From positions 1-34,033 of the forward strand of contig DAOWKX010000008.1 in the NCBI GenBank assembly GCA_030639705.1: a DNA stretch of 34,033 nt, given 5' to 3'. Each line of letters opens with the position of its first letter. Position 1 is the first letter of the stretch. Shown in pieces: positions 961-22,954 of the stretch. The notes beneath the pieces are model-generated. The model ran no database searches. It had not been told where the DNA came from and saw only the letters and a list, made by a program, of their open reading frames with translations. The position numbers and the translations under genes were made by a program. The stretch comes from Candidatus Aminicenantes bacterium. Its GTDB lineage: Bacteria > Acidobacteriota > Aminicenantia > UBA2199.

Positions 961-1386
961 TTATTGCAAGCATTTCTTACAAATTCCCAAAAATTGAATC
1001 TTAACTTCCTCGATTTTATGGCCCTGTATAAATGTTCGTGAAAAAAAAGGCATTTTTAAATCAATGTCAATAATCCGACCGCAAACCGAACAATAAAAAT
1101 GGGCATGGGGTTTATCCACAATATCATAATGGGATTCTGAATCACTGGTTTTCAGAGTGGTTAAAATTCCTTTTTTTACAAACAGATTCAAATTATTGTA
1201 AACGGTTGTTCTGGAAAGAGTAGGAATATTTTTTGAAATTTGTTGGTAAATCATTTCAGCAGAAGGATGATTTTTGTTTTTTATAATGTATTCCAGGATT
1301 AAAAGGCGTTGAAAAGACGGTTTAACTCCTTTAGAGCTCAGGAGATCCTGAAATTTGCGATAAATATCATGCTCTCTTTCTTCCAT
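961..1386 (-). CDS. Fur-family metalloregulator (PerR-like by context)
   Basis: 141 aa with an N-terminal winged-helix (RLLILEYI...HPSAEMIYQQI...ISRTTVYNNLNLF). Metal-site residues include HAHFYCSVCGRI and a C-terminal CKKC (2 x CxxC structural Zn site). It sits first in an operon with rubredoxin and a flavodiiron protein. Confidence 0.85.
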   Translation of the reverse strand: MEEREHDIYRKFQDLLSSKGVKPSFQRLLILEYIIKNKNHPSAEMIYQQISKNIPTLSRTTVYNNLNLFVKKGILTTLKTSDSESHYDIVDKPHAHFYCSVCGRIIDIDLKMPFFSRTFIQGHKIEEVKIQFLGICKKCLQ

Positions 1387-1638: not shown

Positions 1639-2076
1639 ATGAGTACTGAAGAAGGAACCATCACCAAAGCGGCCGGGAACAAAGCCTGGGTTCTTGTGGC
1701 GAGAAGTGAAATGTGTGATTGCTGTGGAAGCAAGGGAATCTGTCATACTCTCGGAGGGGGAAAAAATATGGAAGCCGAAGCTCTAAATACTGCAGGTGCC
1801 AAGGTGGGAGATAGAGTAAGGATAAAAATAAAGACCGGGACCTTATGGAAAATTTCCCTTCTGTTTTATATGATTCCTGTAATTGCTCTTGTACTTGGAG
1901 CCCTGGTGGGAATAAAGATTGGCACCCGAATCCACGCCGATCCGGAATTATTTTCCGCACTATCAGCCATAGTGTTTGCGGGTCTTTCTTTTGCAATTAT
2001 CAAATTAATTGCCAACCGGCTGCAGGATAAAAAAGATTACATCCCGGAAGTTGAGAGGATTCTCTCCCAGGGATAG
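1639..2076 (+). CDS. rseC: RseC/MucC-family (SoxR-reducing-system) membrane protein
   Basis: 145 aa. The N-terminal soluble part has a Cys cluster (CDCCGSKGIC), followed by two TM helices. This is the typical RseC architecture, a family often found next to rnf genes. Confidence 0.7.
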   Translation: MSTEEGTITKAAGNKAWVLVARSEMCDCCGSKGICHTLGGGKNMEAEALNTAGAKVGDRVRIKIKTGTLWKISLLFYMIPVIALVLGALVGIKIGTRIHADPELFSALSAIVFAGLSFAIIKLIANRLQDKKDYIPEVERILSQG

Positions 2077-2387: not shown

Positions 2388-4184
2388 TTATTCAATGGCT
2401 CTGCTGGGGCAAACCCCAATACAGATTCGGCATTGAATACATTTTTCTTTATCAATAAAGGCAACTTTGCCTTTTTCCCAGACAATGGCATTACTTTCAC
2501 ATGACCTGGCACACAGTCCACATTTTATACAAAGTTCGGGGATCACGCGGAATTTCAGGAGTGCCGGGCAAACATGAGCCGGGCAACGTTTTTCAAGAAT
2601 GTGAGCTTCATATTCATGCCTGAAATATTTAATGGTGGTTAAAACCGGGTTCGGTGCGGTCTTTCCCAGACCACAGAGTGCGGCATCAATGATGGTTTCT
2701 GACAAACGCTCTAGTGTGTCAAGATCCTCAATCTTCCCGTTTCCGTCACAAATTCTTTCGAGTATCTCCAGCATCACTTTTGTCCCCACTCGGCAGGGGG
2801 TACATTTTCCACAACTTTCTTCAGCCGTGAAGTTGAGAAAAAATTTGGCAATATCAACCATGCAACTGGTCTCATCCATGACCACCATACCGCCAGAGCC
2901 CATGATGGCACCGGTTTTATTTATGGATTCATAATCAATGGGAATATCAAACATGCTCTCGGGAATACACCCACCCGAGGGGCCGCCCAGCTGAGCCGCC
3001 TTAATCCTTCTATTTTTAATTCCGCCTCCTCCGATCTCAAAGATCACCTTGCGCAATGACATTCCCATTGGAACTTCAACAAGTCCGGTATATTTCACTT
3101 TCCCGGCCAAGGCAAAGACTTTGGTCCCTTTACTCTGGGGAGTCCCGATTGAGGCATAGGCTTCGGGCGAATCAATAATAATCCTTGGGAGATTGGCCAG
3201 AGTTTCAACGTTATTCACCACCGTGGGTTTCTGAAACAATCCTTTAATCGGAGGAAAAGGGGGTTTTGGCCTGGGCATTCCCCGCTGATCTTCAAGGGAA
3301 GCGATCAGAGCTGTTTCTTCACCGCATACAAAAGCGCCGGCACCCTCTCTGATGCTGATGTCAAATGAAAATCCGCTGTCCAGGATGTTCTCTCCTAAAA
3401 AAAAATTTTCTCTGGCATCGGATAAGGCCTTATCCAGAGTTTTTAAAGCAAGGGGATATTCAGCCCGGCAATAGATAAAGCCCTCGGTGGCACCGATCGA
3501 ATAGCCGGCGATTATCATCCCCTCCAATACCGAATGAGGGTCTCCTTCAAGAATCGAGCGATCCATAAAAGCACCCGGATCACCCTCATCTGCATTACAA
3601 ATCACATATTTAATATCGGATTGTACATTTCGACAGAAGGTCCACTTCTTTGCCGTGGGGAATCCTGCCCCGCCACGTCCTCTGATACCTGATTTACCAA
3701 TCTCTTCGATCACCTCTTCCGGTTTCATTTTTAAAATTATTTTTATCGCTTTATAGCCATCATTATCAAGATAATCCGATATTCTAAAGGGATCGATATT
3801 TCCACAATTTCTCAGGACAATCTTCACCTGATCCTTGATCACCGAATACTCATTGGTAAAAGGTACACCCTGGTAAATTGTTATAGTGGCGTTTTCCGGG
3901 GGATATTGAAACAGAACATGCTTCTTTATTATCTCCCCATTATTGATGGTTTTCTCGATAATATTGGGAACCGATTCATCGGTAATATTCCCGTAAGTTA
4001 AACGGGTCCAGCCATCGATTTCTATCTCCGCAATCACTTCCTGGGAACACATTCCGATACAGGCGGTTGATCCCAGCTCAATAGTAAGGTTATGCTTTTT
4101 TATCTCATCTTCAAATGCCTGATAGACGTCCTCACCACCTGCGGCTCTTCCACAGGTTGCCATTCCTATCGTTATCTTTGACAT
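2388..4184 (-). CDS. NuoF-like NADH/FMN-binding flavoprotein, HydB/HndC type (N-terminal thioredoxin-like [2Fe-2S] domain, C-terminal 2x[4Fe-4S] ferredoxin domain)
   Basis: 598 aa. Motifs: RGRGGAGFPTAKKW, NADEGDPGAFMDR, ESCGKCTPCR (N3 cluster), the N-terminal Cys pattern CGRAAG...CIGMC, and C-terminal CIKCGLCARSC and CIQCRICIGVCP. Confidence 0.9.
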   Translation of the reverse strand: MSKITIGMATCGRAAGGEDVYQAFEDEIKKHNLTIELGSTACIGMCSQEVIAEIEIDGWTRLTYGNITDESVPNIIEKTINNGEIIKKHVLFQYPPENATITIYQGVPFTNEYSVIKDQVKIVLRNCGNIDPFRISDYLDNDGYKAIKIILKMKPEEVIEEIGKSGIRGRGGAGFPTAKKWTFCRNVQSDIKYVICNADEGDPGAFMDRSILEGDPHSVLEGMIIAGYSIGATEGFIYCRAEYPLALKTLDKALSDARENFFLGENILDSGFSFDISIREGAGAFVCGEETALIASLEDQRGMPRPKPPFPPIKGLFQKPTVVNNVETLANLPRIIIDSPEAYASIGTPQSKGTKVFALAGKVKYTGLVEVPMGMSLRKVIFEIGGGGIKNRRIKAAQLGGPSGGCIPESMFDIPIDYESINKTGAIMGSGGMVVMDETSCMVDIAKFFLNFTAEESCGKCTPCRVGTKVMLEILERICDGNGKIEDLDTLERLSETIIDAALCGLGKTAPNPVLTTIKYFRHEYEAHILEKRCPAHVCPALLKFRVIPELCIKCGLCARSCESNAIVWEKGKVAFIDKEKCIQCRICIGVCPSRAIE

Positions 4185-4201: not shown

Positions 4202-4699
4202 TTATTCCGCAGCCTCGCGATACATATCAATGATCTTTCTAATTTTATTCACATCCAGTTTACCATAAACCCTGTCATTGACCATCATGGCCGGAGCCAA
4301 GGCGCAGCAACCAAGACAGGCGACATCCTGAACTGTAAAAAGACCATCTTTGGTGGTATCTTCAATTTCACTTATCCCAATATGAGAATTTAAGCTTTCA
4401 CCCAGAATAGTGGCGCCTCCCACATGACAGGCCGTACCGTGACAGACTTTAACAATATTTTTGCCCACGGGTTTGGTCCTGAACTGGGCATAAAAAGTAA
4501 TAACCCCATATATATGACTCTCGGAAACATTCATTTTTTCGGAGAGATATTTTATCGAAAATTCAGGCACATAGCCAAACCGGGTCTGAATCTGTTGTAG
4601 GTAAATCATCAGAGATTTTTTTTGTTTATAATTATAGTAAATGGATTCCACGACTTCAATATCAGTTTTCGAGGGGTTTGTTGGTTCAGGCATACTCAC
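4202..4699 (-). CDS. NuoE-like [2Fe-2S] thioredoxin-fold subunit (HydC/24-kDa type)
   Basis: 165 aa with the Cys pattern VCHGTACHV...CLGCCALAP typical of NuoE/HydC. A GTG start at 4699 overlaps the upstream stop (GTGA); an alternative ATG lies at 4693. Confidence 0.88.
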   Translation of the reverse strand: MSMPEPTNPSKTDIEVVESIYYNYKQKKSLMIYLQQIQTRFGYVPEFSIKYLSEKMNVSESHIYGVITFYAQFRTKPVGKNIVKVCHGTACHVGGATILGESLNSHIGISEIEDTTKDGLFTVQDVACLGCCALAPAMMVNDRVYGKLDVNKIRKIIDMYREAAE

Positions 4700-6732
4700 T
4701 CACGCTCCTTAAACATTTTGGCTGTAATATCCTTCATACCCTTACATTTCATACACAATATTACCTGATAATTTATTCTTCTAAAGACCTCAGGTAGTGA
4801 AAGATCAATTTGATGAGGAATATCCGGTTTCTCTATTTTAATACCTGCCCTTTCCAACCTTTCATAATCAATCTCTTTTAAATGATCATATGTCTGTGCG
4901 ATTTCTTTCTCCCATATGTCTTCTGCGGTATTCATTTCCCAATTGTGACCCAATTTTTTTGCCAATTCTCTGAAAATCCACCAGGTGGGTTTTGCTTCTC
5001 CCGGTGAATCAACTGCTTTCCTGATCCGATTGATCCGGTAATCCGAACTGATGGTAGACCCATCATATTCCACCCAGACCGAAGCAGGCAATACAATATC
5101 TGCCTTTTCCTGTATTTCCGTCGGGAAAATATCCTGAACTACCAAAAACTCTAATGAATCGGTGTTAATCATATGAGGGGTCATTGAATATAAAAATTTC
5201 ACTTTATTAAGTTCTGATTTCCTTTTGGGAAAAATCCCCATAATATAAGCACCCACGGTATTATTTTCCCTGGAAATTGAGCAAATTCTCAGGTTTTCTA
5301 TCTTTTTAATATCCGAAATATCCATCCGGGGATCATGAAACACCAGGGTTTCACCTTTGATTTCCTTTTCCAGGCCGGATAAATTCTTCAGCTGAAGATG
5401 GGCAAATTTTGCTATTTCCATGTTTTCGGAATCCACGACAATGAGCCTGGTCCCCTGCAATACCGCCTGTTTAATAAATGTAGCAGCCACTGGATTGTCC
5501 CGTACGATGTCTGTACCCGCCACAACAATTGTTTCTGCTTTTTTTATCTCTTGGTAATCAATCCCCATGAAAGACGGAGGTTCAAAATGAAAAATATTTT
5601 CACTGGTCATAATCTGATTAAAAAATTTTTTTGTCAGAAACAAATCTTCATTGGTATTCTTGGTAGACACAAAACACCCGATTGCCTCACTACCATACTT
5701 TTCTTTGATCCCAGTCATTTTTCTGGCAACTAAATCCAGTGCTTTTTCCCAGTTTGATTCAACCAGTTTTCCATTTTCCCTGATTTTTGGACGGAGCAAT
5801 CGATCATTGGAGTGGATGAAATCAAAGCCGAATCGACCCTTGAAACAAAGCCTTCCCAGATTTGGTTTTGCATCTTCAATCCCATCAACTTTAACAATTT
5901 CATTATCTTTAATGCATAAATCGAGCTGACATCCCACTCCGCAGTAATAACAGGTGGTTTTCACCCGAGTCACATCCCACATTCTGGAGTTGAATCGATT
6001 TCTCTTCTCAAAGAGCGCTCCCACCGGACAACTCTGAACACATTCCCCGCAATAAACACAATCTGAATCAGGAAGGGTTTTGTCTCCTCTCACTACTATC
6101 TTGGCAATATTCCCCCTGTATCCATGGGAAATTGCATTGTTTACCTGAATCTCACAACAGGCCTGGACGCATCTGCCACAGAGAATACACCGTCCAAAAT
6201 CTCTTCCGATTAACGGATCATTATACTCAAGCGGGTATTTGGTGGGGATGCGATCCAATGTTCTCCGGGTAACCTGGTACCGATAGGCCAATGCCTGCAG
6301 TTCACAGCGTCCATAGGCAACACAAATATCATCTGCCCTATCATATTCACTAACTTCCTGCTGGAAATCCGACCATTCTTCAGGAAAATTCCCCCGGACA
6401 GAACAGTTATGGTTCCCGGAAATGAGCAACAATTCAAGAACCATCTTCCGGGCCTTTACAATGCGTGGCGTTTCAGTCGACACCTCCATGTTATCCGCCG
6501 CAGGTGAAGAACAAGCGGCAATGGGCCCCGGTGCTCCTTTCACATCAACGATACATATACGACAGGCCCCGGTGGGAGGAGCTCCTTTCAGATGACAGAG
6601 TGTGGGAATGTATATTTCATTTCTTCTGGCAACCTCAAGGATTGTTTCCCCCGGTTCAAATTCATATTTATTTCCATTAACGGTAATTGTTTTTTTTAAT
6701 TTGCTCATGGTCTCAGATCCATTTTTTTTCAT
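4696..6732 (-). CDS. NuoG-like / formate-dehydrogenase-alpha-like Fe-S subunit with a degenerate, truncated molybdopterin domain
   Basis: 678 aa. It has an N-terminal [2Fe-2S] site (CHLKG...CRIC...C), a His-ligated cluster region (GNHNC...C), CILCGRCVQAC and CVYCGECVQSCP, then a Mo-bisPGD-type 4Fe-4S motif CYYCGVGCQL...C. The position of the catalytic Cys/Sec segment reads SENIFHFEPPSF, with no Cys. There is no C-terminal cap domain. Confidence 0.85.
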   Translation of the reverse strand: MKKNGSETMSKLKKTITVNGNKYEFEPGETILEVARRNEIYIPTLCHLKGAPPTGACRICIVDVKGAPGPIAACSSPAADNMEVSTETPRIVKARKMVLELLLISGNHNCSVRGNFPEEWSDFQQEVSEYDRADDICVAYGRCELQALAYRYQVTRRTLDRIPTKYPLEYNDPLIGRDFGRCILCGRCVQACCEIQVNNAISHGYRGNIAKIVVRGDKTLPDSDCVYCGECVQSCPVGALFEKRNRFNSRMWDVTRVKTTCYYCGVGCQLDLCIKDNEIVKVDGIEDAKPNLGRLCFKGRFGFDFIHSNDRLLRPKIRENGKLVESNWEKALDLVARKMTGIKEKYGSEAIGCFVSTKNTNEDLFLTKKFFNQIMTSENIFHFEPPSFMGIDYQEIKKAETIVVAGTDIVRDNPVAATFIKQAVLQGTRLIVVDSENMEIAKFAHLQLKNLSGLEKEIKGETLVFHDPRMDISDIKKIENLRICSISRENNTVGAYIMGIFPKRKSELNKVKFLYSMTPHMINTDSLEFLVVQDIFPTEIQEKADIVLPASVWVEYDGSTISSDYRINRIRKAVDSPGEAKPTWWIFRELAKKLGHNWEMNTAEDIWEKEIAQTYDHLKEIDYERLERAGIKIEKPDIPHQIDLSLPEVFRRINYQVILCMKCKGMKDITAKMFKERE

Positions 6733-8735
6733 GCGGGAATCTCACTTTTCTCATTCTCTGATATAGTCTTTTTGTAACATATCAGCCCACAATTCAAACA
6801 CCTTCTGGCTTGATACTTTGCCTGGTCTTCACTCAAGGTAACCTGGTTATTAATAATTCCCCTGGGTGTTTTCAATTGGTCAACATTGAGTATTTCAAAA
6901 ACATTCTGGACTTCTTTCTCATCCATCAGCACACCGGATTCCGGAGAAATCTCTTCACCTGATATATGCTGATGAATGGCTCTGGCCATTTTTCTTCCTA
7001 TTCTGACTGCTACAACCACCCCGGTGAGATCAGTGGGTCTTCCGGCTTCTCCAATGGTAAAAATTCCAATTTCTGATTCTACGGGAAGTACCTTTATGAT
7101 CTCCACAGTCTTCCATTTGCCTTTTTCCCCTTTTTCAAAAAGCATCTCAGGATATCGACCCGAACCCACAATCAGATTATCCAAATTCAATTTTTCACTT
7201 TTTCCATCAGAGTGAATCAAAGACAGGGTTTTCAAATGACCATCCTCGCCTTCCAATTCCATGGGGATTGCTGAAAATATATACCTTACCTGATCGGTAT
7301 CGAATAACTTTATATTTTTAAGTTCAGCTTCAGTTTTTGAAAAGGGAAAGACAATGGTTATGTTTTCCGCACCTTTTTGCAGACAAATATTGGCTGCCTT
7401 AGACGATGTGTTTCCTCCTCCCAGGATAACAATTTTTTTATTTATGGACACTTTTAACTTTTTTGAAGCGGCAATTAAAAAATCAATCAACAGATAAGTT
7501 CCCGGAATGGTTTCCTCAACCTTACTCCCGCCTCTCAGAATCTGTCTGCTGTCCCAGCCGCCAGTTGTCATCAATGCCATATCAAATTCCTCTGAGAATA
7601 GTACTCCCAGGGAAAAATCTATGCCCATCACCTTTCCGGTTTCAGCTTCAATACCTGTTTCCAGAATCCCCTGAATCTCCCAGTCCAGAACCTTCCGGGG
7701 AAGCCTGTCTTCGGTGATCACATATCTTAAAATCCCGCCTAATTTATCCGTAGCTTCAAAAACCGTGGGAATGTGTCCCAGACGTCGTAAATAATAAGCT
7801 GCTGTTAATCCCTCAACTCCGCCGCCAACAATTGCGATTTTCTTTCCGGTTGCAGGTGGTAAATAAGTGGGTAACGCCCTCTGATTGGTTTTCATCTCAT
7901 ATTCTGTTACAAACTTCTTCAAGGCATTGATTCCCACCGGTTCATCAATCAGATTTCGTCTGCACTCGAATTCACAGGGCGCCGGACAAATCCAGCCACA
8001 TATCAGTGGAAAGGGATTTTTTTCTTTTATCACCCGAACCGACTCCAGATAATTTCCCTCAGAGATCTGTCGAATGTACTCGGGAATATCTATTTCTGCC
8101 GGGCAATTTCGCTGGCAGGGTGCCGTACATTCCGTCACTTTATTATCGGATAGAACCCGTCTGGTAGCAGAAGAAATGGTGATAATTCCCTTGGGGCAAA
8201 TTTCAGCACATATACCACATCCGGTGCAGCGATCTATATTCACAACCGGTAAATTGTTTTCCCCCATCGAAAGGGCATTAAATGGACAGGCTTGCACACA
8301 GGTAGCCAATCCCAGACAACCAATATTGCATTCCTTACTGCCCCCATACAGGAGCATCGCTGCCCGGCAATCATAAACCCCATCATAGGTATATTTCAAA
8401 TCTGCGTCCTGGAAACCATAATAGCAACCGGGTTTGGAAATATCAGGCTCCTTTGCCTCAACCTTTTGACCCATTACCTCTGCAACCTGCAGAGCAATTT
8501 CAAAACCACCTGCCGAACATACATCCACTTCTGCTTTGCTCATAACTACTGCCTCAGCAGCTGCTGCACATCCGGCATAACCGCATCCACCGCAATTGGC
8601 TCCCAGTAATGCCTCCTCAACCTGCTCGATCCTGGGATCCTCCCATACATAAAATACCTTGGAAGCAATCGCCAGCATGACAGAGGCCAGTAATCCCAAT
8701 CCCAACAGCATTAGAAATGAGTTTAAAATAATCAT
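6729..8735 (-). CDS. rnfB: RnfB fused to a GltD/NfnB-like FAD/NAD(P)H oxidoreductase
   Basis: 668 aa. Residues 1-200 carry a TM anchor, the RnfB N-terminal Fe-S domain (GANCGGCGYAGC...C), and 2 x 4Fe-4S (CLGLATCVQACP, CTGCGICAEICP). Residues ~200-668 carry the GltD alpha-helical ferredoxin domain (CQRNCPAEIDIPEYI...CGWICPAPCEFEC), an FAD GxGxxG site (IAIVGGGVEGLTAA...EATDKLGG), and a second dinucleotide site (IVILGGGNTS). The stop overlaps the next start (ATGA). Confidence 0.85.
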   Translation of the reverse strand: MIILNSFLMLLGLGLLASVMLAIASKVFYVWEDPRIEQVEEALLGANCGGCGYAGCAAAAEAVVMSKAEVDVCSAGGFEIALQVAEVMGQKVEAKEPDISKPGCYYGFQDADLKYTYDGVYDCRAAMLLYGGSKECNIGCLGLATCVQACPFNALSMGENNLPVVNIDRCTGCGICAEICPKGIITISSATRRVLSDNKVTECTAPCQRNCPAEIDIPEYIRQISEGNYLESVRVIKEKNPFPLICGWICPAPCEFECRRNLIDEPVGINALKKFVTEYEMKTNQRALPTYLPPATGKKIAIVGGGVEGLTAAYYLRRLGHIPTVFEATDKLGGILRYVITEDRLPRKVLDWEIQGILETGIEAETGKVMGIDFSLGVLFSEEFDMALMTTGGWDSRQILRGGSKVEETIPGTYLLIDFLIAASKKLKVSINKKIVILGGGNTSSKAANICLQKGAENITIVFPFSKTEAELKNIKLFDTDQVRYIFSAIPMELEGEDGHLKTLSLIHSDGKSEKLNLDNLIVGSGRYPEMLFEKGEKGKWKTVEIIKVLPVESEIGIFTIGEAGRPTDLTGVVVAVRIGRKMARAIHQHISGEEISPESGVLMDEKEVQNVFEILNVDQLKTPRGIINNQVTLSEDQAKYQARRCLNCGLICYKKTISENEKSEIPA

Positions 8736-8748
8736 AACCGTCTCTCGA

Positions 8749-9348
8749 TCATTTTATCATTAGCGCTTGAAGAGAATTATCAATCCCCATAAATCCATAA
8801 AAAGCCAGCGCCATCAGTCCTGCCGTCACCAGTGCTATGGCAGTATCCTGAAGTACTTTTGGAATATATGCAATCTCAAATCTTCCCCGGATGCCCGCAA
8901 ACAAAATCAATGCCAGTGCAAATCCCACTCCCGAAAACAGGGCATAAAACAAACTCTGTAAAAAATTGAATTCATTATTAATACACAAGACCGCAACCCC
9001 CAGTATCGCACAATTGGTGGTAATCAGGGGGAGAAAAATTCCCAGTGCTTTATACAGGGCCGGCACTATTTTCTTTAAGAACATCTCGATTAGCTGAACC
9101 AAAGAAGCAATAACCAGGATAAACACAATGGTCTGAAGGTATTCAATCTTAAGGAGAACCAGCAGGTAATGATGTACAAACCAGGTGATACTGGTCGCAA
9201 AGGTTATAACAAATATGACCGCCATTCCCATACCGGTGGCGGTTTCCATCTTTTTGGAAACACCCATGAAAGGACAATTTCCCAGGTATTGGGCCAGTAA
9301 AATATTTTTTACCAAAATAGCATTGATGGCCAGTATAATATATTCCAT
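8749..9348 (-). CDS. rnfA: Rnf complex subunit A
   Basis: 199 aa polytopic membrane protein. Motifs LAQYLGNCPFMGVSKKMETA and TTNCAILG are typical of RnfA/NqrE. Confidence 0.9.
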   Translation of the reverse strand: MEYIILAINAILVKNILLAQYLGNCPFMGVSKKMETATGMGMAVIFVITFATSITWFVHHYLLVLLKIEYLQTIVFILVIASLVQLIEMFLKKIVPALYKALGIFLPLITTNCAILGVAVLCINNEFNFLQSLFYALFSGVGFALALILFAGIRGRFEIAYIPKVLQDTAIALVTAGLMALAFYGFMGIDNSLQALMIK

Positions 9349-9363: not shown

Positions 9364-9957
9364 TTATTTTTTGGGGAATAGATTAATTAAAGCCAAAATC
9401 AGTCCCAGACATACAAATGCTCCGGGCGCACTTACCATAAAGGCAAACGGTTCATAAGAATTCCACATCACCTGCATTCCCAGAAAGGTTCCTTTACCCA
9501 GTATTTCTCTGATTGTGCTGATCAATATCAGAGAAAGGGTAAATCCCAATCCGATCCCCAATCCGTCAGCGGCGGACAGGTAGATCGGATTTTTCGAAGC
9601 AAAGGCCTCGGCTCTACCCAGGATAATGCAATTCACCACAATAAGATTAATAAACAACCCCAGCTGTTTTGAAATTGAAAAAAAATAGGCTTTCATAACC
9701 AGCTCAACGATAACCACAAATGTCGCAATAATAATAATATAAGATGCAATTCTGACTTTTTTGGGAATGATTTTCTTTATGGAAGAAATAATCACATTTG
9801 AAAAAAACAGGACAAAAGTCGTACTGAGCCCCATACCGATTCCATTTTCGACAGCTGTGGTAACAGCCAACACCGGGCATAAACCCAGTACCAGCCTGAA
9901 GGGTGGTAAAATCTCCCAGAAGCCTTTTAAAAATTCATGCGCTATCGTCTTTTTCAT
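9364..9957 (-). CDS. rnfE: Rnf complex subunit E
   Basis: 197 aa. Motifs LVLGLCPVLAVTT and VVNCIILGRAEAFA are typical of RnfE/NqrD. Confidence 0.9.
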   Translation of the reverse strand: MKKTIAHEFLKGFWEILPPFRLVLGLCPVLAVTTAVENGIGMGLSTTFVLFFSNVIISSIKKIIPKKVRIASYIIIIATFVVIVELVMKAYFFSISKQLGLFINLIVVNCIILGRAEAFASKNPIYLSAADGLGIGLGFTLSLILISTIREILGKGTFLGMQVMWNSYEPFAFMVSAPGAFVCLGLILALINLFPKK

Positions 9958-9978: not shown

Positions 9979-10554
9979 TTATTTTTTTTTCACAACCTGA
10001 TCCTTAATGGCAGAATATAAGACAATACTTTGCTCCACAGCTGAACATACGGCTCTCGATGATATTGTGGCTCCGGAAACCGCATCAATAGTCCCGTTAT
10101 CCTTTTTTACCTTAAAGATTTCAGAAATGACTCTATCTTTAAAATTGTTTGTAAAAATTGGCTCTGAAACCCGTGCCCCCAAACCGGGAGTTTCCTGGTG
10201 GGTTAAAATTCCGATTCCGGTAAGCCTGTCTTTCTCCAGATCAAATCCCACCATCACCCCTATTTTGCCTTTATAACCCATGGCCGTCATCTCAAAGGCA
10301 ATGGCCCAGATCTGGCCATTTTTTTTCCCCAAAAAAACAATTTTTATTTCCTGGTCGACAGTAATCTCCTCTCTGTCCTGTATGATATCATTGGTTGATG
10401 AGGCCAGCACATTATTTAAAGCAGGCCCCTGAACATTCACCAAAATTTGTTCTTCAATCCGTTTTTCAGTACCTTTCTTGACTGCAGCCAGCAGCAGACC
10501 GCAAACGGCTGCAATGGCCGTTAACACTGCTACCATCCTGATATACTCTCTCAT
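9979..10554 (-). CDS. rnfG: Rnf complex subunit G (FMN_bind domain)
   Basis: 191 aa with an N-terminal anchor, ETPGLG, and the flavinylation motif DAVSGATISS retained. Confidence 0.9.
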   Translation of the reverse strand: MREYIRMVAVLTAIAAVCGLLLAAVKKGTEKRIEEQILVNVQGPALNNVLASSTNDIIQDREEITVDQEIKIVFLGKKNGQIWAIAFEMTAMGYKGKIGVMVGFDLEKDRLTGIGILTHQETPGLGARVSEPIFTNNFKDRVISEIFKVKKDNGTIDAVSGATISSRAVCSAVEQSIVLYSAIKDQVVKKK

Positions 10555-11522
10555 TCTGCCCTGCTTTCAATATGAATAAATTCCACGGGTTTTGATCTTT
10601 TCTTGAGCTTATCCAGTAAGGGAGTGAATAAATTCATGATTAAGATAGCAAAAAACACCCCGTCAGGATAAACACTCCACACCCTGAATATAATTGTCAG
10701 GAAACCACATCCGAACCCAAACACAATCATTCCCCATCTGTTAAAAGGCGAGCTTGCATAATCGGTAGAAAGAAAAAATATCCCTAACATTAAATTCCCG
10801 GTAAACAGGTGAAACAGCGGATTGGCATATTGATTATTGTTTAACAGCCAGAAAACCGAGGATACAACCAATATCCCCACCATGAAGGATACCGGAATTT
10901 CCCAGGCAATGACTCCTCTTAATAATAGATAAATACCGCCAATCAGAAGAAGCAGAACGGCAACGGTTCCAATTCCACCCACCTGCTTACCCAGGAGAAA
11001 ATCCAGAAGTTTAAACTCTGAAATGAATTCAGTTCCCCCTTTCTTTAAAAGGGTCAGGGGATAGCGGAAACTATATCCCAGATCATAATTGACAGATGCC
11101 AGATCAAGATTATAATAAGCAGGCCATGAAATCCTGGTGATTGCCCATCCGACCAGAACAGGACTCAATGGATTGCTGCCCAGGCCTCCAAAAATCTCCT
11201 TACCGATAAAAATACATAAAAACGCCCCCATGATAACCAGCCAGTAAGGAACACTGGGAGGGAGTAGCATGGCAAAGAGCAGACCGATAACAACGGCGCT
11301 ACCGTTGGTAATGGTTGATTCTTTTCCAAACAGTTTCCGAATGAAGTATTCACTGGCAATGGTTGTCACCACTGAGAGTGAGATGATTCTGGCCGCATGA
11401 AGGCCGTAGGTATACACAGCATAAATCAGGACCGGGAGCAAGGCAATTATCAAGTGGCTATGAATTTTGGTGATACTATCTTTATTGTTCCAGTGGGGAG
11501 GACTTGACACAATTAATTTCAT
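10551..11522 (-). CDS. rnfD: Rnf complex subunit D (divergent: the flavinylation Thr is replaced)
   Basis: 323 aa polytopic protein of the NqrB/RnfD type (GGLGSNPLSPVL, FLSTDYASSP, VYPDGVFFAILIMN). The segment aligned to the S-x-A-T-P-L motif reads SFRYPL (11055-11072). Confidence 0.85.
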   Translation of the reverse strand: MKLIVSSPPHWNNKDSITKIHSHLIIALLPVLIYAVYTYGLHAARIISLSVVTTIASEYFIRKLFGKESTITNGSAVVIGLLFAMLLPPSVPYWLVIMGAFLCIFIGKEIFGGLGSNPLSPVLVGWAITRISWPAYYNLDLASVNYDLGYSFRYPLTLLKKGGTEFISEFKLLDFLLGKQVGGIGTVAVLLLLIGGIYLLLRGVIAWEIPVSFMVGILVVSSVFWLLNNNQYANPLFHLFTGNLMLGIFFLSTDYASSPFNRWGMIVFGFGCGFLTIIFRVWSVYPDGVFFAILIMNLFTPLLDKLKKRSKPVEFIHIESRAE

Positions 11523-12703
11523 TTTTCCTCTTCTTGCTCAATTTTTTCTAATTCACTTTTCGCCAGTCTGATAAACTGTACCAGCGACCGCCCGGACGGA
11601 CAGTGGTAAGCACATAAACCACATTCAATACAATCATACACATCAAGCTCCAGACATTCTTCAAAATGGGAAAACTCGGAAAATCTGCAGATGAGATTGA
11701 CATCCAGTTCCGCCGGACAAACCCGTACACATTTTCCACAATTGATACAGGCTTGATTCCGGTTTAAAATTACCTCGCTGGAATCCTGCAAATAGACTAA
11801 ATCGATTGTATCTCCAACCGGAATATCAGTACTGTAACAGGCATCACCCCTGAGTGGACCTCCTAAAATCAGTTTGTCATTATCATGAATATCACTATCC
11901 TTGAATAGATTTTTAATGGGCGTTCCAATTCGAATCCTAATATTTTTACTCTCTTTATTCCCGATGATGGTTACTACTTTATGAACAAATGGCCGACCTT
12001 GTTTCAGAGCAATAACAGCTCCAAATAACTTTTCAACTTTCAAATAAGCACACGCTTCCAAACCAAGCTTATAGTAAATGGTCCGCATGAGAATATCAGG
12101 TAAGCCGTTGGGATAAACCGGATCCACCAAAAAAACATCCGCCTGATCTTCAATAATATCAGCTACCAGATAATCAAGATTTTTGGGGATAGCCAGGACT
12201 ACTTTTTGCGCGGCAGTTAAAAATTTTATTAATTCCAATCCTTCAAGAATACGGTTTTTATTCTCCCTTAATATTTGCTGTTGGATGGTTGCCAGTGGCT
12301 CTGTATCCACGGCACTGATGACAACTGTTTTCGTCTGGGCCAGTTTTTCAGAAAATTTCAGATTACAGCGATTTAACTGTTTTAATATTTCCAGAGGGTC
12401 CTTTTCTAAAAAATCTGGTACCTCTTTTATTGCCGGATCAAATTTTTCATCCTCGGCAACCCTGATCCTCAGAGCCACCCTTTTGCCACCTGCCACCTGT
12501 AATGAATCAATGCTTTTCAGGGTACCGGTAACCGTTGAATGCTCACCCGGAAAAATCTCTTCACCGGTGAGTATTTTTGATCCTTCCTTAAATTTCAGTG
12601 TATCACTACCCGGATCAAATCCTTTTAAAGTGAGAATCACCTCTTCCGGATCCGGGAGATCAGTAATACCCATTTCCTTTATATTTAATGCCAGACTATC
12701 CAT
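11519..12703 (-). CDS. rnfC: Rnf complex subunit C (divergent: lacks the glycine-rich FMN/NADH loop)
   Basis: 394 aa. It has the N-terminal barrel-sandwich domain, an SLBB-like segment (IGTPIKNLF...LILGGPLRG), and C-terminal 2x[4Fe-4S] (CINCGKCVRVCP, CIECGLCAYHCP). Where canonical RnfC has G(L/M)GGAGFPT...NxAECEPY, this protein reads NRCNLKFSEK...SAVDTEPL. Confidence 0.85.
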   Translation of the reverse strand: MDSLALNIKEMGITDLPDPEEVILTLKGFDPGSDTLKFKEGSKILTGEEIFPGEHSTVTGTLKSIDSLQVAGGKRVALRIRVAEDEKFDPAIKEVPDFLEKDPLEILKQLNRCNLKFSEKLAQTKTVVISAVDTEPLATIQQQILRENKNRILEGLELIKFLTAAQKVVLAIPKNLDYLVADIIEDQADVFLVDPVYPNGLPDILMRTIYYKLGLEACAYLKVEKLFGAVIALKQGRPFVHKVVTIIGNKESKNIRIRIGTPIKNLFKDSDIHDNDKLILGGPLRGDACYSTDIPVGDTIDLVYLQDSSEVILNRNQACINCGKCVRVCPAELDVNLICRFSEFSHFEECLELDVYDCIECGLCAYHCPSGRSLVQFIRLAKSELEKIEQEEEK

Positions 12704-12717: not shown

Positions 12718-13410
12718 CTACTCTTCTTTATGACAAATTGTACAATCATCGACTCCATCGCTGTGACATTCAATACAATTCTTTCCAATACATCGAACAT
12801 GAACATCGGCATTTTCACAAATCATTTTATATTTAGAGTTGTAGTGACACCGCCTGCAGTTCAGGGGAAAATTTTTCTTATTTTCAATTTTATACCCATG
12901 GTGACAGGTTTCACATTCAATCTCATAGCCATCCGGAGAGGCGTGATCCAGGTGATTAAAAACCACCGGTCCTCCATCGGTATTAAAAATAATTTCCTTT
13001 GGCGTCTTTACTTTTTCAAAATGTTCAGCATTGTGACAGAACTCACACTTTACCGAACCCTGAACATGACATTCCACACAGTTTTTTCCAATACATCTCT
13101 TATGGATGGTTTCATCCCCGCAAGTTTCAACAAATTCTTTATTATAATGACACTCCCTGCAATTCATTTTCACTCTCTCTTTTTGATCGGGTGAATAATT
13201 ATGATGGCATTCCTCACAGGTCGTGTCTTTCAGGGATGAATGATACCCGTGGTCAAAAATGACCCCGCCTCCCTTGGTGAGAAAAGCCACCCGGATGGGT
13301 TCCTTTTCTTTGTCAAAGGCAAATCCCCAGATTGCCAAAATGAAAAGAACAACAGAGAGTAAGATAATGAAAAATTCCTTTTTTTTAGTTAGAAATTTAA
13401 CTTTATCCAT
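12718..13410 (-). CDS. Membrane-anchored octahaem cytochrome c (tandem duplication of a tetrahaem c3-like domain)
   Basis: 230 aa with an N-terminal hydrophobic anchor and eight CxxCH motifs (CEECH, CRECH, CVECH, CEFCH, CETCH, CRRCH, CIECH, CTICH). The two halves align motif-for-motif (V-F-H..H...C..CHH...NCR.CHYN...H.RCIGKNC.ECH...C..CH). It lies 14 nt upstream of rnfC. Confidence 0.9.
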   Translation of the reverse strand: MDKVKFLTKKKEFFIILLSVVLFILAIWGFAFDKEKEPIRVAFLTKGGGVIFDHGYHSSLKDTTCEECHHNYSPDQKERVKMNCRECHYNKEFVETCGDETIHKRCIGKNCVECHVQGSVKCEFCHNAEHFEKVKTPKEIIFNTDGGPVVFNHLDHASPDGYEIECETCHHGYKIENKKNFPLNCRRCHYNSKYKMICENADVHVRCIGKNCIECHSDGVDDCTICHKEE

Positions 13411-13487: not shown

Positions 13488-13517
13488 ATACTAACATAAG
13501 GAATTTTAGAATGTCAA
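13488..13517 (-). promoter_or_regulatory. Sigma70-type promoter of the cytochrome-rnf-nuoGEF-like operon
   Basis: Minus strand reads TTGACA (13517-13512), an 18-nt spacer ending in TGt, then TAGTAT (13493-13488), about 75 nt upstream of ATG 13410. Confidence 0.45.
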
Positions 13518-13565: not shown

Positions 13566-13952
13566 TTATTCCTTTAAAAGACCACTTATGGTAGCGATTA
13601 AATCATCCGGATCAATCGGTTTTTCCATGAACTTCTCAACCGGTAAAAAACCACCATCTTCTTCAATATTAAATTTAAATTTGGTCATTTGATTGACAGC
13701 AGTTGCCAGTATAATTGGAATGTGTTTATATTTTTCATTCATTTTAACAAATTGAGCGAAATTAAAACCGTCACTATCCTTTTCCATCATAACATCAAGA
13801 ATAATCAAATCAATCTTTTCATTCTCCAGAATCTCCTCAGCTACTTTTATATTGGTGGCCTGGACAACATCATAATTGCTGTGCTCCAAAATAATTTTCC
13901 TAACTTCAAGAACATCAATATCATCATCAATGTCCAGTATTTTCTTTTTCAT
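13566..13952 (-). CDS. Stand-alone response-regulator receiver (CheY-like, no output domain)
   Basis: 128 aa with the acidic pocket DIDDD, a phospho-acceptor in LIILDVMM, and conserved T (ILATA) and K (MEKP). Confidence 0.88.
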   Translation of the reverse strand: MKKKILDIDDDIDVLEVRKIILEHSNYDVVQATNIKVAEEILENEKIDLIILDVMMEKDSDGFNFAQFVKMNEKYKHIPIILATAVNQMTKFKFNIEEDGGFLPVEKFMEKPIDPDDLIATISGLLKE

Positions 13953-13960
13953 TTCTCCTC

Positions 13961-14659
13961 CTAATTCATAAATGGTAATTTTATGGTTATGGTTGTGCCT
14001 TCACCAACGACACTATCGAGATCAATTGATCCCTCATGGTCCTTGATGATCTGCTTGACCAGAGAAAGGCCCAAACCGATACTACCGTCAATATTTTTTC
14101 TGGCCTCCCTTCCCCGGGCAAAAATATTAAATACCTTATCTATATCCTCAGCCGGAATACCTATTCCGGTATCACTTATCTCAATGATAATAAGCTTATT
14201 AAACCTCTCAAAACAACGGATATCAATACTCCCATTTTCTTTATTATATTTCACTGCATTCATAATAATATTATTAAATGCCCTTAAGAGAAATGTATAA
14301 TTTCCAAACACAAATTTCTCCTGACAGGATCTTTGGGAATAATTAATGGTAATCTTTTTTTCATCAGCATAAGGTTTGATAATCGAAAATGATTCGTCAA
14401 TTATATCAAATAAATTTAGTCGTTCACGCTTCATCTGGGATTTATTTTCCAGAACCGTATAATCAAGAATATCTTCCACAATTTTGATGAGGGCCTCAGA
14501 CTTTTTTCTGGCCCGGGAAATGAGCTCCTTCACTTTTTCCGGGTCATCCACATAGCCTTTTTCCACTACAATTAATAAATCGACCACTGCGGATAGAGGA
14601 GCCTTTAAATCATGGGCAATCACCGCAAGGTTTTTAAAATCTTTCTCTATTTTTGGCAT
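13961..14659 (-). CDS. Histidine kinase core (HisKA + HATPase_c) without TM or sensor domain
   Basis: 232 aa with H-box IAHDLKAPLS, N-box NAVKYN, G1 DTGIGI and G2 GLGLSL. The kinase core begins within ~10 residues of the N-terminus. Confidence 0.88.
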   Translation of the reverse strand: MPKIEKDFKNLAVIAHDLKAPLSAVVDLLIVVEKGYVDDPEKVKELISRARKKSEALIKIVEDILDYTVLENKSQMKRERLNLFDIIDESFSIIKPYADEKKITINYSQRSCQEKFVFGNYTFLLRAFNNIIMNAVKYNKENGSIDIRCFERFNKLIIIEISDTGIGIPAEDIDKVFNIFARGREARKNIDGSIGLGLSLVKQIIKDHEGSIDLDSVVGEGTTITIKLPFMN

Positions 14660-14699: not shown

Positions 14700-15179
14700 C
14701 TAATTATTTTTAAATCCCTTTATTATTTCATCAGCCACCTGTTCAACCAGACCAGGCAATCCCTTTTCAACTATTGGACTTAATTTTTCCTCCGGTTTAA
14801 TTTCCTTGGCCTGGATACAATAAATCACGATATCAATTGACTCAGACATATTTATCTTTTTGGCATAATCAAGAAAACCAATTAAATCAAATTCATGTAA
14901 TGAATGGCCTCTGTTTGTCTTCAAACTATTCACTTCATCACGCCGGAACCTTTTAAATTTTCCAGACGGTATCCCACAATTTCCGGAATCAATAAAGATT
15001 ATTTTCTCCCTATCTTGAAATTGATGTAGGAGATTCATCCCACAGGTTCTGGCCTCGATTAAATCAACCGCTATGCCTTTTAATTTCTTCTCCAATAATC
15101 GAATGGCATGCAGTGCTGCGCCATCATCTGCCATTAAATCGTTCCCCAGGCCAATGACTGCGGTCTTATGTCTTGTCAT
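14700..15179 (-). CDS. [NiFe]-hydrogenase maturation endopeptidase (for the group 3b enzyme)
   Basis: 159 aa with VIGLGNDLMADDGAA and FIDSG motifs of the HycI/HoxW/FrhD protease family. It lies directly downstream of the large subunit. Confidence 0.85.
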   Translation of the reverse strand: MTRHKTAVIGLGNDLMADDGAALHAIRLLEKKLKGIAVDLIEARTCGMNLLHQFQDREKIIFIDSGNCGIPSGKFKRFRRDEVNSLKTNRGHSLHEFDLIGFLDYAKKINMSESIDIVIYCIQAKEIKPEEKLSPIVEKGLPGLVEQVADEIIKGFKNN

Positions 15180-15182
15180 ATT

Positions 15183-16484: not shown

Positions 16485-17233
16485 TTCTTTACCTCCGGAT
16501 TCACTCCAAATAAATTGATCGTCCTCCTGATCTCCTCTACCGTGTAATTATACTTGTCCAGTATCTCGTGCATAGCATTCTTGTTGGGATTTTCTACCGT
16601 ACCACGACACGCCTCGCACGGAGACCCATTCGACGGACATCGCGCACCACATCCAGCTCGAGCCAACGGACCCAAACAAATCACTCCCTGGTCAAATAAA
16701 CATATGTTCTCCTTTAACTTGCACTCTACACATACCGGATGATTCGGCAACCTCGGCGTCTTTCCCAAACATAACTCCTTGACCATACGCAAAAACTCAT
16801 CACGGTCTATCGGACATCCGGGTATATACAAATCAACCTCTACCACCTCATCTATGCCCCTGGTGGGATAGGTATCCAAATGAGCCAGGTTCGAATCATC
16901 CCCGTACACACATTTTTTCACATCATCCATACTCGACCAGTTGTTCTTCAACCGGTTAATCCCTCCACTCACCGCACACTGCCCGTACGCCACCACCAAC
17001 TTCGACCGCTCTCGTATGTCCTTCAACCGATTCTCATCCGACTTACGCGTAATCGAACCCTCTACAAACGCTATATCATATTCCTCTGCCTCTCCCGTCA
17101 TCACTTCTCGAAATTCCACCACCTCAACCAATTCCAGTAGCTTTATTATATCTTCCTCTAAATTGGCAACCTGTAACTGACAACCCTCACAACCGGCAAA
17201 ATCAAAAAACGCTGCCCTCGGCTTTTTGCTCAT
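16481..17233 (-). CDS. [NiFe]-hydrogenase small (delta) subunit, group 3 type (no Tat signal)
   Basis: 250 aa with FDFAGCEGCQ, GQCAVSGG and PGCP motifs, plus distal-cluster cysteines. Its stop overlaps the alpha subunit start by 4 nt. Confidence 0.88.
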   Translation of the reverse strand: MSKKPRAAFFDFAGCEGCQLQVANLEEDIIKLLELVEVVEFREVMTGEAEEYDIAFVEGSITRKSDENRLKDIRERSKLVVAYGQCAVSGGINRLKNNWSSMDDVKKCVYGDDSNLAHLDTYPTRGIDEVVEVDLYIPGCPIDRDEFLRMVKELCLGKTPRLPNHPVCVECKLKENICLFDQGVICLGPLARAGCGARCPSNGSPCEACRGTVENPNKNAMHEILDKYNYTVEEIRRTINLFGVNPEVKK

Positions 17234-17234
17234 C

Positions 17235-18158: not shown

Positions 18159-18168
18159 TCTTTCCTCC

Positions 18169-22907: not shown

Positions 22908-22954
22908 CCTAGAATCGTCAATCAAGTTTTAAGACTGTCTCAGGAAATCTACCC

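Follow-up and report, generated by a model that had tools for sequence, protein, structure and literature searches.

Anaerobes have two main ferredoxin-driven ion pumps, one of which is Rnf; among flavin-based bifurcators, Bfu enzymes are the most widespread. Rnf and Bfu have so far been treated as separate machines that communicate via soluble ferredoxin and NADH. A 34,033-bp stretch of DNA from a Candidatus Aminicenantes bacterium (positions 1 to 34,033 of contig DAOWKX010000008.1, GenBank assembly GCA_030639705.1; hereafter the window) carries an rnf operon in which the RnfB subunit is fused to a GltD-type flavoprotein (RnfB::GltD′) and in which three genes for Bfu-type subunits follow directly. 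We propose that these genes encode an Rnf–Bfu supercomplex, in which a BfuBC head would handle NAD(H) and ferredoxin on its NuoF-like subunit and the fused flavoprotein would be the adaptor into RnfB; we regard this proposal as evenly poised between right and wrong.

Large RnfB proteins of ∼700 amino acids, described as NAD binding and encoded together with an RnfC lacking the flavin mononucleotide (FMN)/NADH domain and a cytochrome c3, have been reported for Desulfobacula toluolica Tol2, for D. multivorans, and, as Rnf2, for all Desulfobacteraceae (PMC5109826; PMC11887813). The proteins have been seen by proteomics, with no biochemistry, and neither paper speaks of Bfu or NuoEFG-like genes, of an RnfD that has lost its threonine, or of a degenerate nucleotide site that marks a subfamily (PMC5109826; PMC11887813). 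The window cluster resembles these systems in having an RnfB of ∼660 to 700 amino acids (668 in the window) with a pyridine-nucleotide-disulfide-oxidoreductase-type extension, an RnfC without the FMN/NADH domain, a cytochrome c3-type gene at the head of the cluster, and, according to the present survey, an RnfD without the FMN-carrying threonine in both. It differs in that the Tol2-type/Rnf2 clade has a canonical NADPH site and a CxxCCxxC C terminus, with 11 of 12 loci lacking NuoE/F/G-like genes within 8 to 10 kb, whereas the window protein combines GGGVEGL and a CxxCGLxC C terminus with a degenerate second site and is followed by bfuA′-bfuC-bfuB.

The same four building blocks, namely, a GltD module (FAD and two [4Fe-4S] clusters, one of them Lys ligated), a catalytically dead wire resembling NuoG/Fdh, a [2Fe-2S] subunit of the NuoE kind, and an FMN subunit of the NuoF kind with a C-terminal ferredoxin domain, make up StnABC of Sporomusa ovata and NfnABC of Caldicellulosiruptor saccharolyticus and Thermococcus sibiricus (PMC10482914, PMC11829005, PMC12018979). 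Those enzymes are soluble, and their GltD module is inserted in BfuA and binds NADPH there; the GltD′ of the window, in contrast, is detached from BfuA′, sits on a membrane-anchored RnfB without the NADPH signature, and is encoded inside an rnf operon. With classical Rnf (A. woodii, 9ERI; C. tetanomorphum, 7ZC6) the window shares the rnfCDGEAB order, the RnfA/E/G/D core, the RnfB N terminus, and the SGAT motif of RnfG. Unlike in classical Rnf, the distal ferredoxin-like domains of RnfB give way to GltD′, RnfC lacks GGAxFPT and ECEPY, RnfD lacks the threonine of TTATPL, and cytochrome c and bfu genes are added. A survey of the Bfu family predicts membrane-bound Mbh-Bfu and Nuo-Bfu enzymes and, in its main text, names Rnf only in the reference list (PMC9304861). 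Mbh-Bfu and Nuo-Bfu are like the window in that a BfuABC head is genetically embedded in an ion-translocating membrane complex, and the window is unlike them in that its membrane partner is Rnf, joined by the covalent RnfB-GltD′ fusion (PMC9304861). No linkage of RnfB with Bfu or Stn was found in the literature searched, with partial coverage of subscription papers, which yielded only the large-RnfB descriptions of the Rabus group. The fusion itself is already known; the Aminicenantes-type arrangement is a variant that the literature searched does not describe.

The fusion and its two halves are as follows.

6729-8735, minus strand: RnfB::GltD′ fusion, an uninterrupted open reading frame (ORF) of 668 amino acids (ORF list and translation)
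8136-8735, minus strand: RnfB half, residues 1 to 200, with a transmembrane (TM) helix, a [4Fe-4S] Fe-S domain, and a 2×[4Fe-4S] ferredoxin domain
6729-8135, minus strand: GltD′ half, residues 201 to 668, with two [4Fe-4S] clusters, a flavin adenine dinucleotide (FAD) site, and a degenerate second dinucleotide domain

A preliminary description of this DNA, made from the sequence without database searches, had reported the single 668-amino-acid ORF, leaving out its strand, and had read its start as a complete RnfB with a TM anchor and a CGGCGYAGC...C domain. Both readings hold. The TM helix spans residues 2 to 28, and the Fe-S domain (PF04060, residues 45 to 73, E value 6e−9) carries C48-G-G-C51-G-Y-A-G-C56 plus C73, with the four cysteines invariant in a 42-sequence alignment. 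The fusion scored 84.9 against the NCBIfam rnfB model TIGR01944 (cutoff, 68.7) and fell under the cutoffs of the NCBIfam equivalog rnfB models NF041836 and NF005503-5. The dicluster ferredoxin domain was matched by PF12838 at residues 139 to 184, and Fer4_7 and Fer4 together span residues 139 to 186 (Pfam). Of the two CxxCxxCxxxCP motifs claimed for it, the second is canonical (C170..C180-P), whereas the first is the RnfB-typical C136-x3-C140-x5-C146-x3-C150-P; cysteines 136, 140, 146, 150, 170, 173, 176, and 180 are invariant in the 42 homologues. phmmer searches of the PDB aligned the RnfB half over residues 7 to 196 with 9eri_B (E value, 1e−49) and 7zc6_B (E value, 7e−49). The alignment to the A. 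woodii and C. tetanomorphum proteins stops at about residue 196, and their further ferredoxin-like domains are missing in the fusion. The TM helix and the membrane-proximal ASKxFYVxEDP segment are kept in every family member. The N-terminal part is thus predicted to be a genuine RnfB, encoded at the rnfB position of an operon ordered rnfCDGEA-B.

The preliminary description had also raised the concern that a missed stop codon or frameshift joins separate rnfB and gltD genes. The probability of such an artifact is negligible, as at least 120 protein clusters with the same full-length architecture and 46 to 81% identity occur in different assemblies and phyla, among them Aminicenantes, Acidobacteriota, Spirochaetota, and Desulfobacterota metagenome-assembled genomes (MAGs); the architecture also extends to Fibrobacteraceae. 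The junction is conserved, with S189, R193, and C203 invariant in the 42 sequences, and a Candidatus Aminicenantes MAG is the source of an identical deposited protein. We conclude that RnfB is truly fused to the flavoprotein and that the fusion is conserved, not an assembly artifact.

The reading frame continues into the GltD-type module that the preliminary description had recognized from CQRNCP, GGGVEG, and GGGNTS. Domain models bear this out and complete the set (PF04060, ferredoxin domains, Fer4_20, and Pyr_redox_2) expected of the fusion: Fer4_20 (PF14691, residues 201 to 284, E value 2e−21) carries CTAPCQRNCP and CGWICPAPCEFEC, and Pyr_redox_2 (PF07992, residues 299 to 534, E value 8e−15) carries GGGVEG at residues 304 to 309 and GGGNTS at residues 439 to 444. 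The best NCBIfam models for this remainder of the fusion were GltD-like "NAD(P)-binding protein" families. Sequence comparison with the PDB, which covered the fusion, BfuA′, and BfuB, placed NfnA 9n5u_A (E value, 2e−68), 9bov_A (3e−60), and StnC 8oh5_C (4e−60) first for the GltD′ half, ahead of NfnL, DPD, and GltD; residues 182 to 611 aligned best to the GltD modules of NfnA (T. sibiricus, C. saccharolyticus) and StnC (S. ovata). An AlphaFold2 (AF2) monomer model had a pLDDT (predicted local confidence) of ∼90 over residues 210 to 550, and its top Foldseek matches were again NfnA and StnC, in agreement with the sequence search. Stn and Nfn proteins are thus the best sequence and structure matches for this half; they are also the best PDB matches for BfuB, and they match BfuA′ over its Fe-S region.

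Residues C203, C207, C211, C250, C254, C258, and K273 are invariant in the 42 homologues and align to C100, C104, C108, C147, C151, C155, and K170 of C. saccharolyticus NfnA. K273 corresponds to Lys170, the A7/C7 cluster ligand required for Stn activity (PMC11829005; PMC10482914). The FAD motif is likewise invariant in the fusion family (G304-G-G-V-E-G309, E327, G333-G334, and the flavin-proximal R337, which aligns with R239 of StnC). The GltD′ half is therefore predicted to hold two [4Fe-4S] clusters of the A6/A7 type, one of them ligated by Lys273, and an FAD site. It ends, just before the stop codon, in the invariant motif R-C646-x2-C649-G-L-x-C653. Across the family, this C-terminal segment (residues 645 to 656; positions 6729-6800, minus strand) reads R-C-x2-C-G-L-x-C-Y in one type of large RnfB, referred to below as type B, and C-x2-C-C-x2-C in the other, type A; it aligns to RCLECGC at the GltD/NuoG boundary of StnC and NfnA, and AF2 confidence there is low.

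The two types were distinguished in a survey of 50 fusion proteins from a genome collection and 42 database homologues; the collection scan was dominated by Desulfobacterota, so that frequencies are biased. Surveyed loci are designated by L numbers. Type A carries GGGPAGL together with a complete NADPH signature (GGGNTAIDxxRT…YRRTRKEMPA). It occurs in Desulfobacteraceae, Pseudodesulfovibrio, Desulfocarbo, and Desulfosarcina alkanivorans, and one Spirochaetota MAG has it as the first copy of a tandem pair. Type B comprises the window protein and relatives in Aminicenantes, Acidobacteriota, Spirochaetota, Fibrobacteraceae, and many Desulfobacterota MAGs and has GGG(V/A)(E/Q)GL without the Arg pair or EMPA. 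In a neighbor-joining tree, a Desulfobacteraceae clade (18 sequences plus L049) stands apart from the window clade, with a mean identity of 39% between them. The published Tol2-type/Rnf2 descriptions fit type A. Membership of the window protein in the Desulfobacteraceae Rnf2 clade was ruled out by the tree together with the comparison of nucleotide sites.

Both types meet in L003 (Spirochaetota GCA_034190085; 7848-12055 and 15064-17823) and L004, where two tandem large-RnfB genes follow rnfA, the first of type A with its NADPH signature intact and the second of type B. Downstream lie nuoE, a nuoE-like gene, nuoF, and a gene for a 919-amino-acid FdhA-like protein that appears as ORFs of 376 and 526 amino acids in another assembly, probably owing to an in-frame UGA codon for selenocysteine (Sec). 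In L016 (7025-9793, minus strand, next to 10007-12058, plus strand), a type-B large RnfB without adjacent rnf genes and a Sec-type FdhA are divergently encoded; the FdhA has a NuoG-like N terminus and is split into ORFs of 377 and 528 amino acids, probably by Sec. Type-B proteins may thus pair with genuine Fdh modules as well.

The nucleotide site is where the window protein departs from its GltD relatives. It reads GGGNTSSKAANICLQKGAENITIVFPFSKTEAEL, and in the alignment with NfnA and StnC only the glycine loop of the NADPH signature survives: NTAxD…YRR…EMPA (in full, GGGNTAMD…R…YRR…EMPA) has become GGGNTSSK…FPFSKTEAEL. NfnA, StnC, NfnL, and type A share NTAxD, the YRR Arg pair, and EMPA, all of which are replaced here; nor does the window protein have, at the end of strand β2, the acidic residue typical of NADH specificity. 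About 12 type-B members lack even the glycine loop (VHNLSEG, IASAGQK, VDGLARAL, and AGEGRH), whereas the subclade closest to the window protein keeps a VVIxGGGxTAxKAA…VTiVfPySK core. Mean pairwise identity in the NAD(P)H domain, compared with Fer4_20, is 0.61 versus 0.72 in type A, 0.27 versus 0.62 in type B, and 0.42 versus 0.75 among the 24 closest relatives of the window protein. The nucleotide domain is thus the least conserved globular part and the fastest-evolving region of type B.

These observations bear on a different reading, in which the fused module is a working NAD(P)H:FAD site, RnfB is fed by or reduces pyridine nucleotide, and the NuoGEF-like proteins provide a second site; for the large RnfB of the Tol2-type/Rnf2 systems, such a function has been suggested before. 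It would fit the GltD/NfnA-like fold with its confident two-Rossmann architecture, the presence of GGGNTS and the conserved core of the closest subclade, the full NADPH signature of the type A relatives in Desulfobacterota, and the annotation of the extension as NAD binding in print (PMC5109826; PMC11887813). Replacement of all three signature elements, the missing acidic residue at β2, the loss of the glycine loop in about 12 type-B members, and the rapid evolution of the nucleotide domain speak against it, and we consider it rather unlikely. The preliminary description had proposed just such a direct NAD(P)H site, and this is not supported by the site residues, the signature being replaced in the window protein and across its subfamily.

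A further reading takes the conservation of the FAD site, of R337, and of the subclade-specific motif in the second domain, against the nonconservation of the NADPH residues, to mean that the FAD of GltD′ acts on something other than a pyridine nucleotide, such as polysulfide or sulfur (as in SudA-type GltD homologues), a thiol/disulfide, or quinone; the invariant C-terminal motif of three cysteines, which has no assigned role, could be accommodated as well. The analysis turned up no positive evidence for a substrate of this kind, conserved redox-active Cys pairs are absent near the FAD motifs, and the consistent partners are NuoG-like Fe-S proteins rather than sulfur- or quinone-handling ones, which makes this reading improbable.

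Three translationally coupled genes follow the fusion.

4696-6732, minus strand: BfuA′, NuoG/FdhA-like (Fer2_4, NADH-G_4Fe-4S_3, Fer4, Molybdop_Fe4S4, and Molybdopterin in Pfam)
4202-4699, minus strand: BfuC, NuoE/HydC-like [2Fe-2S] protein with the C1 cluster (PF01257, E value 3e−46; NCBIfam NuoE-family matches)
2388-4184, minus strand: BfuB, NuoF/HydB-like, the last gene of the operon (Complex1_51K, NADH_4Fe-4S, and Fer4 in Pfam)

BfuB (598 amino acids) matched PDB entries 9bov_B (E value, 9e−229), NfnB 9n5u_B (3e−225), and StnB 8oh5_B (3e−221) from end to end. It comprises an N-terminal domain, the FMN/NADH site, the B1 cluster, a linker site, and a C-terminal 2×[4Fe-4S] (B3/B4) ferredoxin-binding domain, and GRGGAGFPT, NADEGDPGAFMDR, ESCGKCTPCR, and both C-terminal Cys motifs are intact. 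The canonical NADH/FMN site is accordingly predicted to lie on BfuB and not on the fusion. The cluster motif of BfuC is C86-x4-C91…C127-x3-C131.

The start codon of bfuA′ overlaps the stop codon of the fusion by 4 nucleotides (ATGA). BfuA′ (678 amino acids) has C46, C57, C60, and C74 for a [2Fe-2S] cluster, an atypical His-cluster motif (H108-x-C110…C137-x5-C143), two CxxCxxCxxxC motifs, and the Molybdop_Fe4S4 motif. Its molybdopterin domain is truncated. Its top PDB matches were FdsA-type formate dehydrogenases (α subunits of the NAD type), and the C-terminal halves of NfnA and StnC were also matched. Neither the Molydop_binding domain (Pfam) nor a Cys/Sec-His active-site pair was found in BfuA′ (NIFHFEPPSF), and on these grounds a real formate dehydrogenase was ruled out. 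From its sequence, BfuA′ is instead predicted to be a cofactor-less, catalytically dead Fe-S wire, as in NfnA and StnC (PMC11829005; PMC10482914). JGI labels several homologues of the fusion "formate dehydrogenase beta subunit," and genuine FdhA partners of the Sec type are encoded elsewhere (L003/L004 and L016).

The GltD′ half matches StnC 88-397 and NfnA 91-520, and BfuA′ matches StnC 566-806 and NfnA of C. saccharolyticus 542-872. In StnC and NfnA, a single polypeptide contains both the GltD module and the NuoG/Fdh-like wire; by a Rosetta stone argument, GltD′ and BfuA′ are predicted to be in contact, and we infer their association from that gene fusion and the 4-nucleotide overlap. BfuA′ itself has no module for a third substrate; the sole candidate is GltD′, encoded in trans on RnfB, and were the fusion protein absent, the Bfu module would be left without a third partner. 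Together, the fusion, BfuA′, BfuC, and BfuB are predicted to be exactly the parts of a Stn/Nfn-Bfu transhydrogenase. The suggestion in the preliminary description of a membrane-tethered Nfn/Stn-like function thus came near the mark, without use of its strongest evidence, the three downstream Bfu genes. In loci flanked by at least 5 kb on either side, a NuoE/F-like gene was found no farther than 8 kb from 11 of 19 type-B genes and from 1 of 12 type-A genes (Fisher P = 0.008, an indicative value given that the loci are phylogenetically related).

Upstream of the fusion, the operon encodes an altered Rnf core and a cytochrome. RnfE and RnfA are named by their place in the rnfCDGEAB order.

12718-13410, minus strand: membrane-anchored octaheme cytochrome c, first gene of the operon (Cytochrom_CIII, E value 3.5e−13, two stretches)
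11519-12703, minus strand: RnfC′ (TIGR01945 score of 184.7, below the cutoff of 245.95)
10551-11522, minus strand: RnfD (PF03116, E value 5e−97)
9979-10554, minus strand: RnfG, the periplasmic FMN subunit (PF04205, E value 3e−20; DAVSGATISS intact)
9364-9957, minus strand: RnfE (PF02508, E value 4e−61)
8749-9348, minus strand: RnfA (PF02508, E value 9e−58)

RnfC′ lacks the G(M/L)GGAxFPT and AECEPY motifs: relative to 7zc6_C, GMGGATFPTHVKL is replaced by LNRCNLKFSEKLA and NAAECEPYLT by SAVDTEPLAT, and both C-terminal [4Fe-4S] motifs are retained. RnfC′ is thus predicted to be an Fe-S-only protein whose FMN/NADH site has been lost. In RnfD, YSFRYPL stands in place of the VTTATPL of A. woodii and C. 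tetanomorphum, and the covalent-FMN threonine is gone. In a motif survey comparing loci L001-L063 with loci L065-L085, the RnfC and RnfD losses were present in every large-RnfB locus of either type (more than 80 loci surveyed) and also in some short-RnfB clusters of Desulfobacterota (L053, L060, L062, and L072 [Desulfovibrio sp.]), whereas classical loci keep the RnfC motifs and RnfD [ST]xATPL; the SGAT of RnfG is kept throughout. The cytochrome consists of two c3-like tetraheme halves with 8 CxxCH motifs, behind an N-terminal KKK and hydrophobic helix (an N-in signal anchor). With RnfC′ and RnfD so altered, the RnfG FMN kept, and a cytochrome co-encoded, the chain most likely runs between the Bfu head and periplasmic cytochrome c. 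The Rnf cluster of Methanosarcina acetivorans also starts with a multiheme cytochrome c, MmcA, and its complex is thought to pass ferredoxin electrons to the cytochrome and not to NAD+; unlike the window, that system is archaeal, with a short RnfB (NF041836 type), no Bfu genes, and another type of cytochrome.

The fusion is gene 7 of the ten-gene minus-strand operon, which reads cyt c-rnfC′DGEA-rnfB::gltD′-bfuA′-bfuC-bfuB with overlaps of 4 nucleotides or gaps of at most 21 nucleotides. It starts 13 nucleotides 3′ of rnfA, and no second rnfB-like sequence was found in the window. The same ten-gene layout recurs in L001, L005, L006, and L091 (fusion identity of 57 to 63%), in L090 (65%), and in L032, a Fibrobacteraceae MAG (45%), with variants in L003 (Spirochaetota) and L087/L088, the latter two having BfuA′ and BfuC fused. 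A homologous cytochrome gene occupies the same position in L001, L003, L005, L006, L086, L087, L090, and L091. In L001, L006, L088, L090, and L091, the ferredoxin domain of BfuB is replaced by a second, canonical NADPH-type GltD (GGGPAGL…YRRTRKEMPA). The presence of an intact NADPH-type GltD and a degenerate RnfB-fused copy in one cluster is an argument for a different job of the RnfB-fused copy.

Further features of these clusters are recorded here. The BfuB proteins bearing the NADPH-type GltD are of ∼1,020 amino acids (L001, 14512-17580; L088, 9643-12696), compared with 598 for the ferredoxin-domain BfuB of the window. In the complete Aminicenantes genome CP070627 (L089, 7177-14034), the cluster appears decayed, with rnfG-E-A-rnfB::gltD′-bfuA′-bfuC left, unrelated genes upstream in place of the cytochrome, rnfC, and rnfD, and a 139-amino-acid ORF at the bfuB position. 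Genes with DRTGG, PHP, and HATPase_c domains lie inside the rnf-bfu clusters of L087 (14236-15933) and L088 (7546-9219). In the window, a promoter-like site lies upstream of the operon.

13488-13517, minus strand: promoter-like site, TTGACA-18-TAGTAT with an upstream TG, 5′ of the cytochrome gene

As promoter-like sites are only weakly enriched in the window (40, versus 29.8 ± 6.0 in shuffled sequences; terminator-like sites, 15 versus 12.0 ± 3.7), this site is a weak hint at where the operon may start and is given as a suggestion only.

The domain identities, the conserved cofactor ligands, the loss of the NADPH and FMN motifs, and the conserved gene order are observed in the sequences; the physical association of the subunits, the electron path, the role of the FAD, and the ion coupling of the proposed Rnf–Bfu supercomplex are inferred and may be sketched as follows. 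The cytoplasmic end of RnfB would have been rebuilt such that it exchanges electrons with an attached bifurcating module instead of free ferredoxin. The RnfB half, with its TM helix and three [4Fe-4S] clusters, would dock on RnfA/E as usual, and electrons would pass between the RnfB clusters, the GltD′ clusters and FAD, the BfuA′ clusters, and the [B1-FMN-C1] bifurcating site of BfuBC. NAD(H) would react at the FMN of BfuB and ferredoxin at its C-terminal clusters, and the third, mid-potential substrate of the Bfu enzyme would be the Rnf membrane chain, not NADPH. From RnfB the path would lead via RnfA/E to the periplasmic FMN of RnfG and then to the octaheme cytochrome, with the ion path in RnfD; the Rnf core would thereby couple electron flow between the cytoplasmic Bfu head and periplasmic cytochrome c to the movement of Na+ or H+. 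Overall, the complex would catalyze NADH + reduced ferredoxin ⇌ cytochrome c (and perhaps the periplasmic [NiFe] hydrogenase of the window) ± ion-motive force. In one direction, NADH and reduced ferredoxin would reduce cytochrome c or a periplasmic hydrogenase while ions are exported. In the other, electrons from periplasmic H2 would pass through cytochrome c and, assisted by the ion gradient, through Rnf to be bifurcated to NADH and reduced ferredoxin.

Several points weigh against the Rnf–Bfu supercomplex. The association of the proteins is deduced from their genes. A GGG…A glycine loop and a confidently predicted Rossmann fold (pLDDT, ∼90) persist in the window protein and in the subclade nearest to it, so that NADH or another dinucleotide may be bound. 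The conserved FAD has no obvious hydride donor. RnfC′ retains both [4Fe-4S] motifs, and the RnfD-RnfC arm may still serve a cytoplasmic partner. Nor is the association with Bfu genes obligatory, as 8 of the 19 type-B loci have no nearby NuoE/F (e.g., L014, L018, and L022); L018 and L022 have no recognizable context at all. Finally, L008, L012, L025, and L027 carry nuoE-nuoF-rnfB::gltD′ without rnf genes or a NuoG-like gene, which would fit a fusion that is only the membrane anchor of a Bfu enzyme.

In that last case, the fusion would be the membrane anchor and Fe-S/FAD subunit of a Bfu-type enzyme, one that in this lineage has no more than an operon in common with the rnf genes, and Rnf and Bfu would be separate and linked by soluble ferredoxin. 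The nuoE-nuoF-rnfB::gltD′ arrangement without adjacent rnf genes, which also occurs in L045, would fit, as would the pairing of a type-B protein with a divergently encoded Sec-type FdhA in L016. The rnf-less loci, however, are affiliated with Desulfobacterota, and other members of the group carry an rnf operon, so that such proteins could be an alternative RnfB. In the window, no other rnfB-like gene accompanies the fusion, which occupies the canonical position 13 nucleotides after rnfA, and without the fusion the Rnf complex would have no entry subunit. The score above the TIGR01944 cutoff and the retention of the TM helix and ASKxFYVxEDP motif in all members also count against a mere anchor, and we assign this reading a low probability. 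The Rnf–Bfu supercomplex in its fullest form, a hard-wired machine with an ion-translocating core devoid of an NAD site, a degenerate GltD link, and a periplasmic multiheme cytochrome partner, is put forward tentatively and with more doubt than the supercomplex as such.

Elsewhere in the window, two [NiFe] hydrogenases are encoded. A group 1 enzyme lies at 30538-33636 on the minus strand, with a small subunit (32656-33636) carrying the Tat signal SRRDFMK, a large subunit (31092-32654; NF033181 score of 736, above the cutoff of 600), and a maturation protease (30538-31047); no cytochrome b gene follows it, and the enzyme may serve the Rnf-linked cytochrome as a periplasmic partner. A four-subunit group 3b (sulfhydrogenase-like, NAD(P)-linked) enzyme with a HycI-type protease lies at 14700-19191 (minus strand). 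The ORF of its γ subunit (17235-18368, TTG start) overlaps the β-subunit ORF by ∼200 nucleotides, and the true start is probably further downstream. Between this hydrogenase and the rnf operon is a histidine kinase/response regulator pair (13566-14659). The region at 22413-26566 (plus strand) encodes a small c554/c7-like multiheme cytochrome (22413-22907), a 199-amino-acid ORF, and ResB/CcsA-type system II cytochrome c biogenesis proteins. An RseC/MucC-family gene (1639-2076, plus strand) lies just past the operon in the opposite orientation, next to a gene for a Fur-family regulator (961-1386, minus strand); an RseC/MucC gene is also found near the rnf cluster of L086 (10547-10990). RseC is linked to Rsx/Rnf in E. 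coli.

If the fused domain merely binds NAD(P)H, the window protein is another member of an already noted family, and the interest is modest. If the Rnf–Bfu supercomplex exists, it would join the predicted Mbh-Bfu and Nuo-Bfu as a third type of membrane-bound Bfu enzyme, a single machine that couples flavin-based bifurcation to an ion gradient and to periplasmic H2/cytochrome c chemistry. Large RnfB proteins would then form a general socket through which Rnf takes different cytoplasmic modules (Bfu, Fdh, and NADPH), which may give a purpose to the long-unexplained Rnf of sulfate reducers with its large RnfB and FMN-less RnfC. Such a tethered version would show how energy-limited bacteria, here Aminicenantes, Acidobacteriota, Spirochaetota, Fibrobacterota, and Desulfobacterota, channel low-potential electrons without releasing them, and it would provide a defined gene set with which to ask whether bifurcation can be linked directly with an ion gradient and with cytochrome c/hydrogen metabolism in the periplasm.

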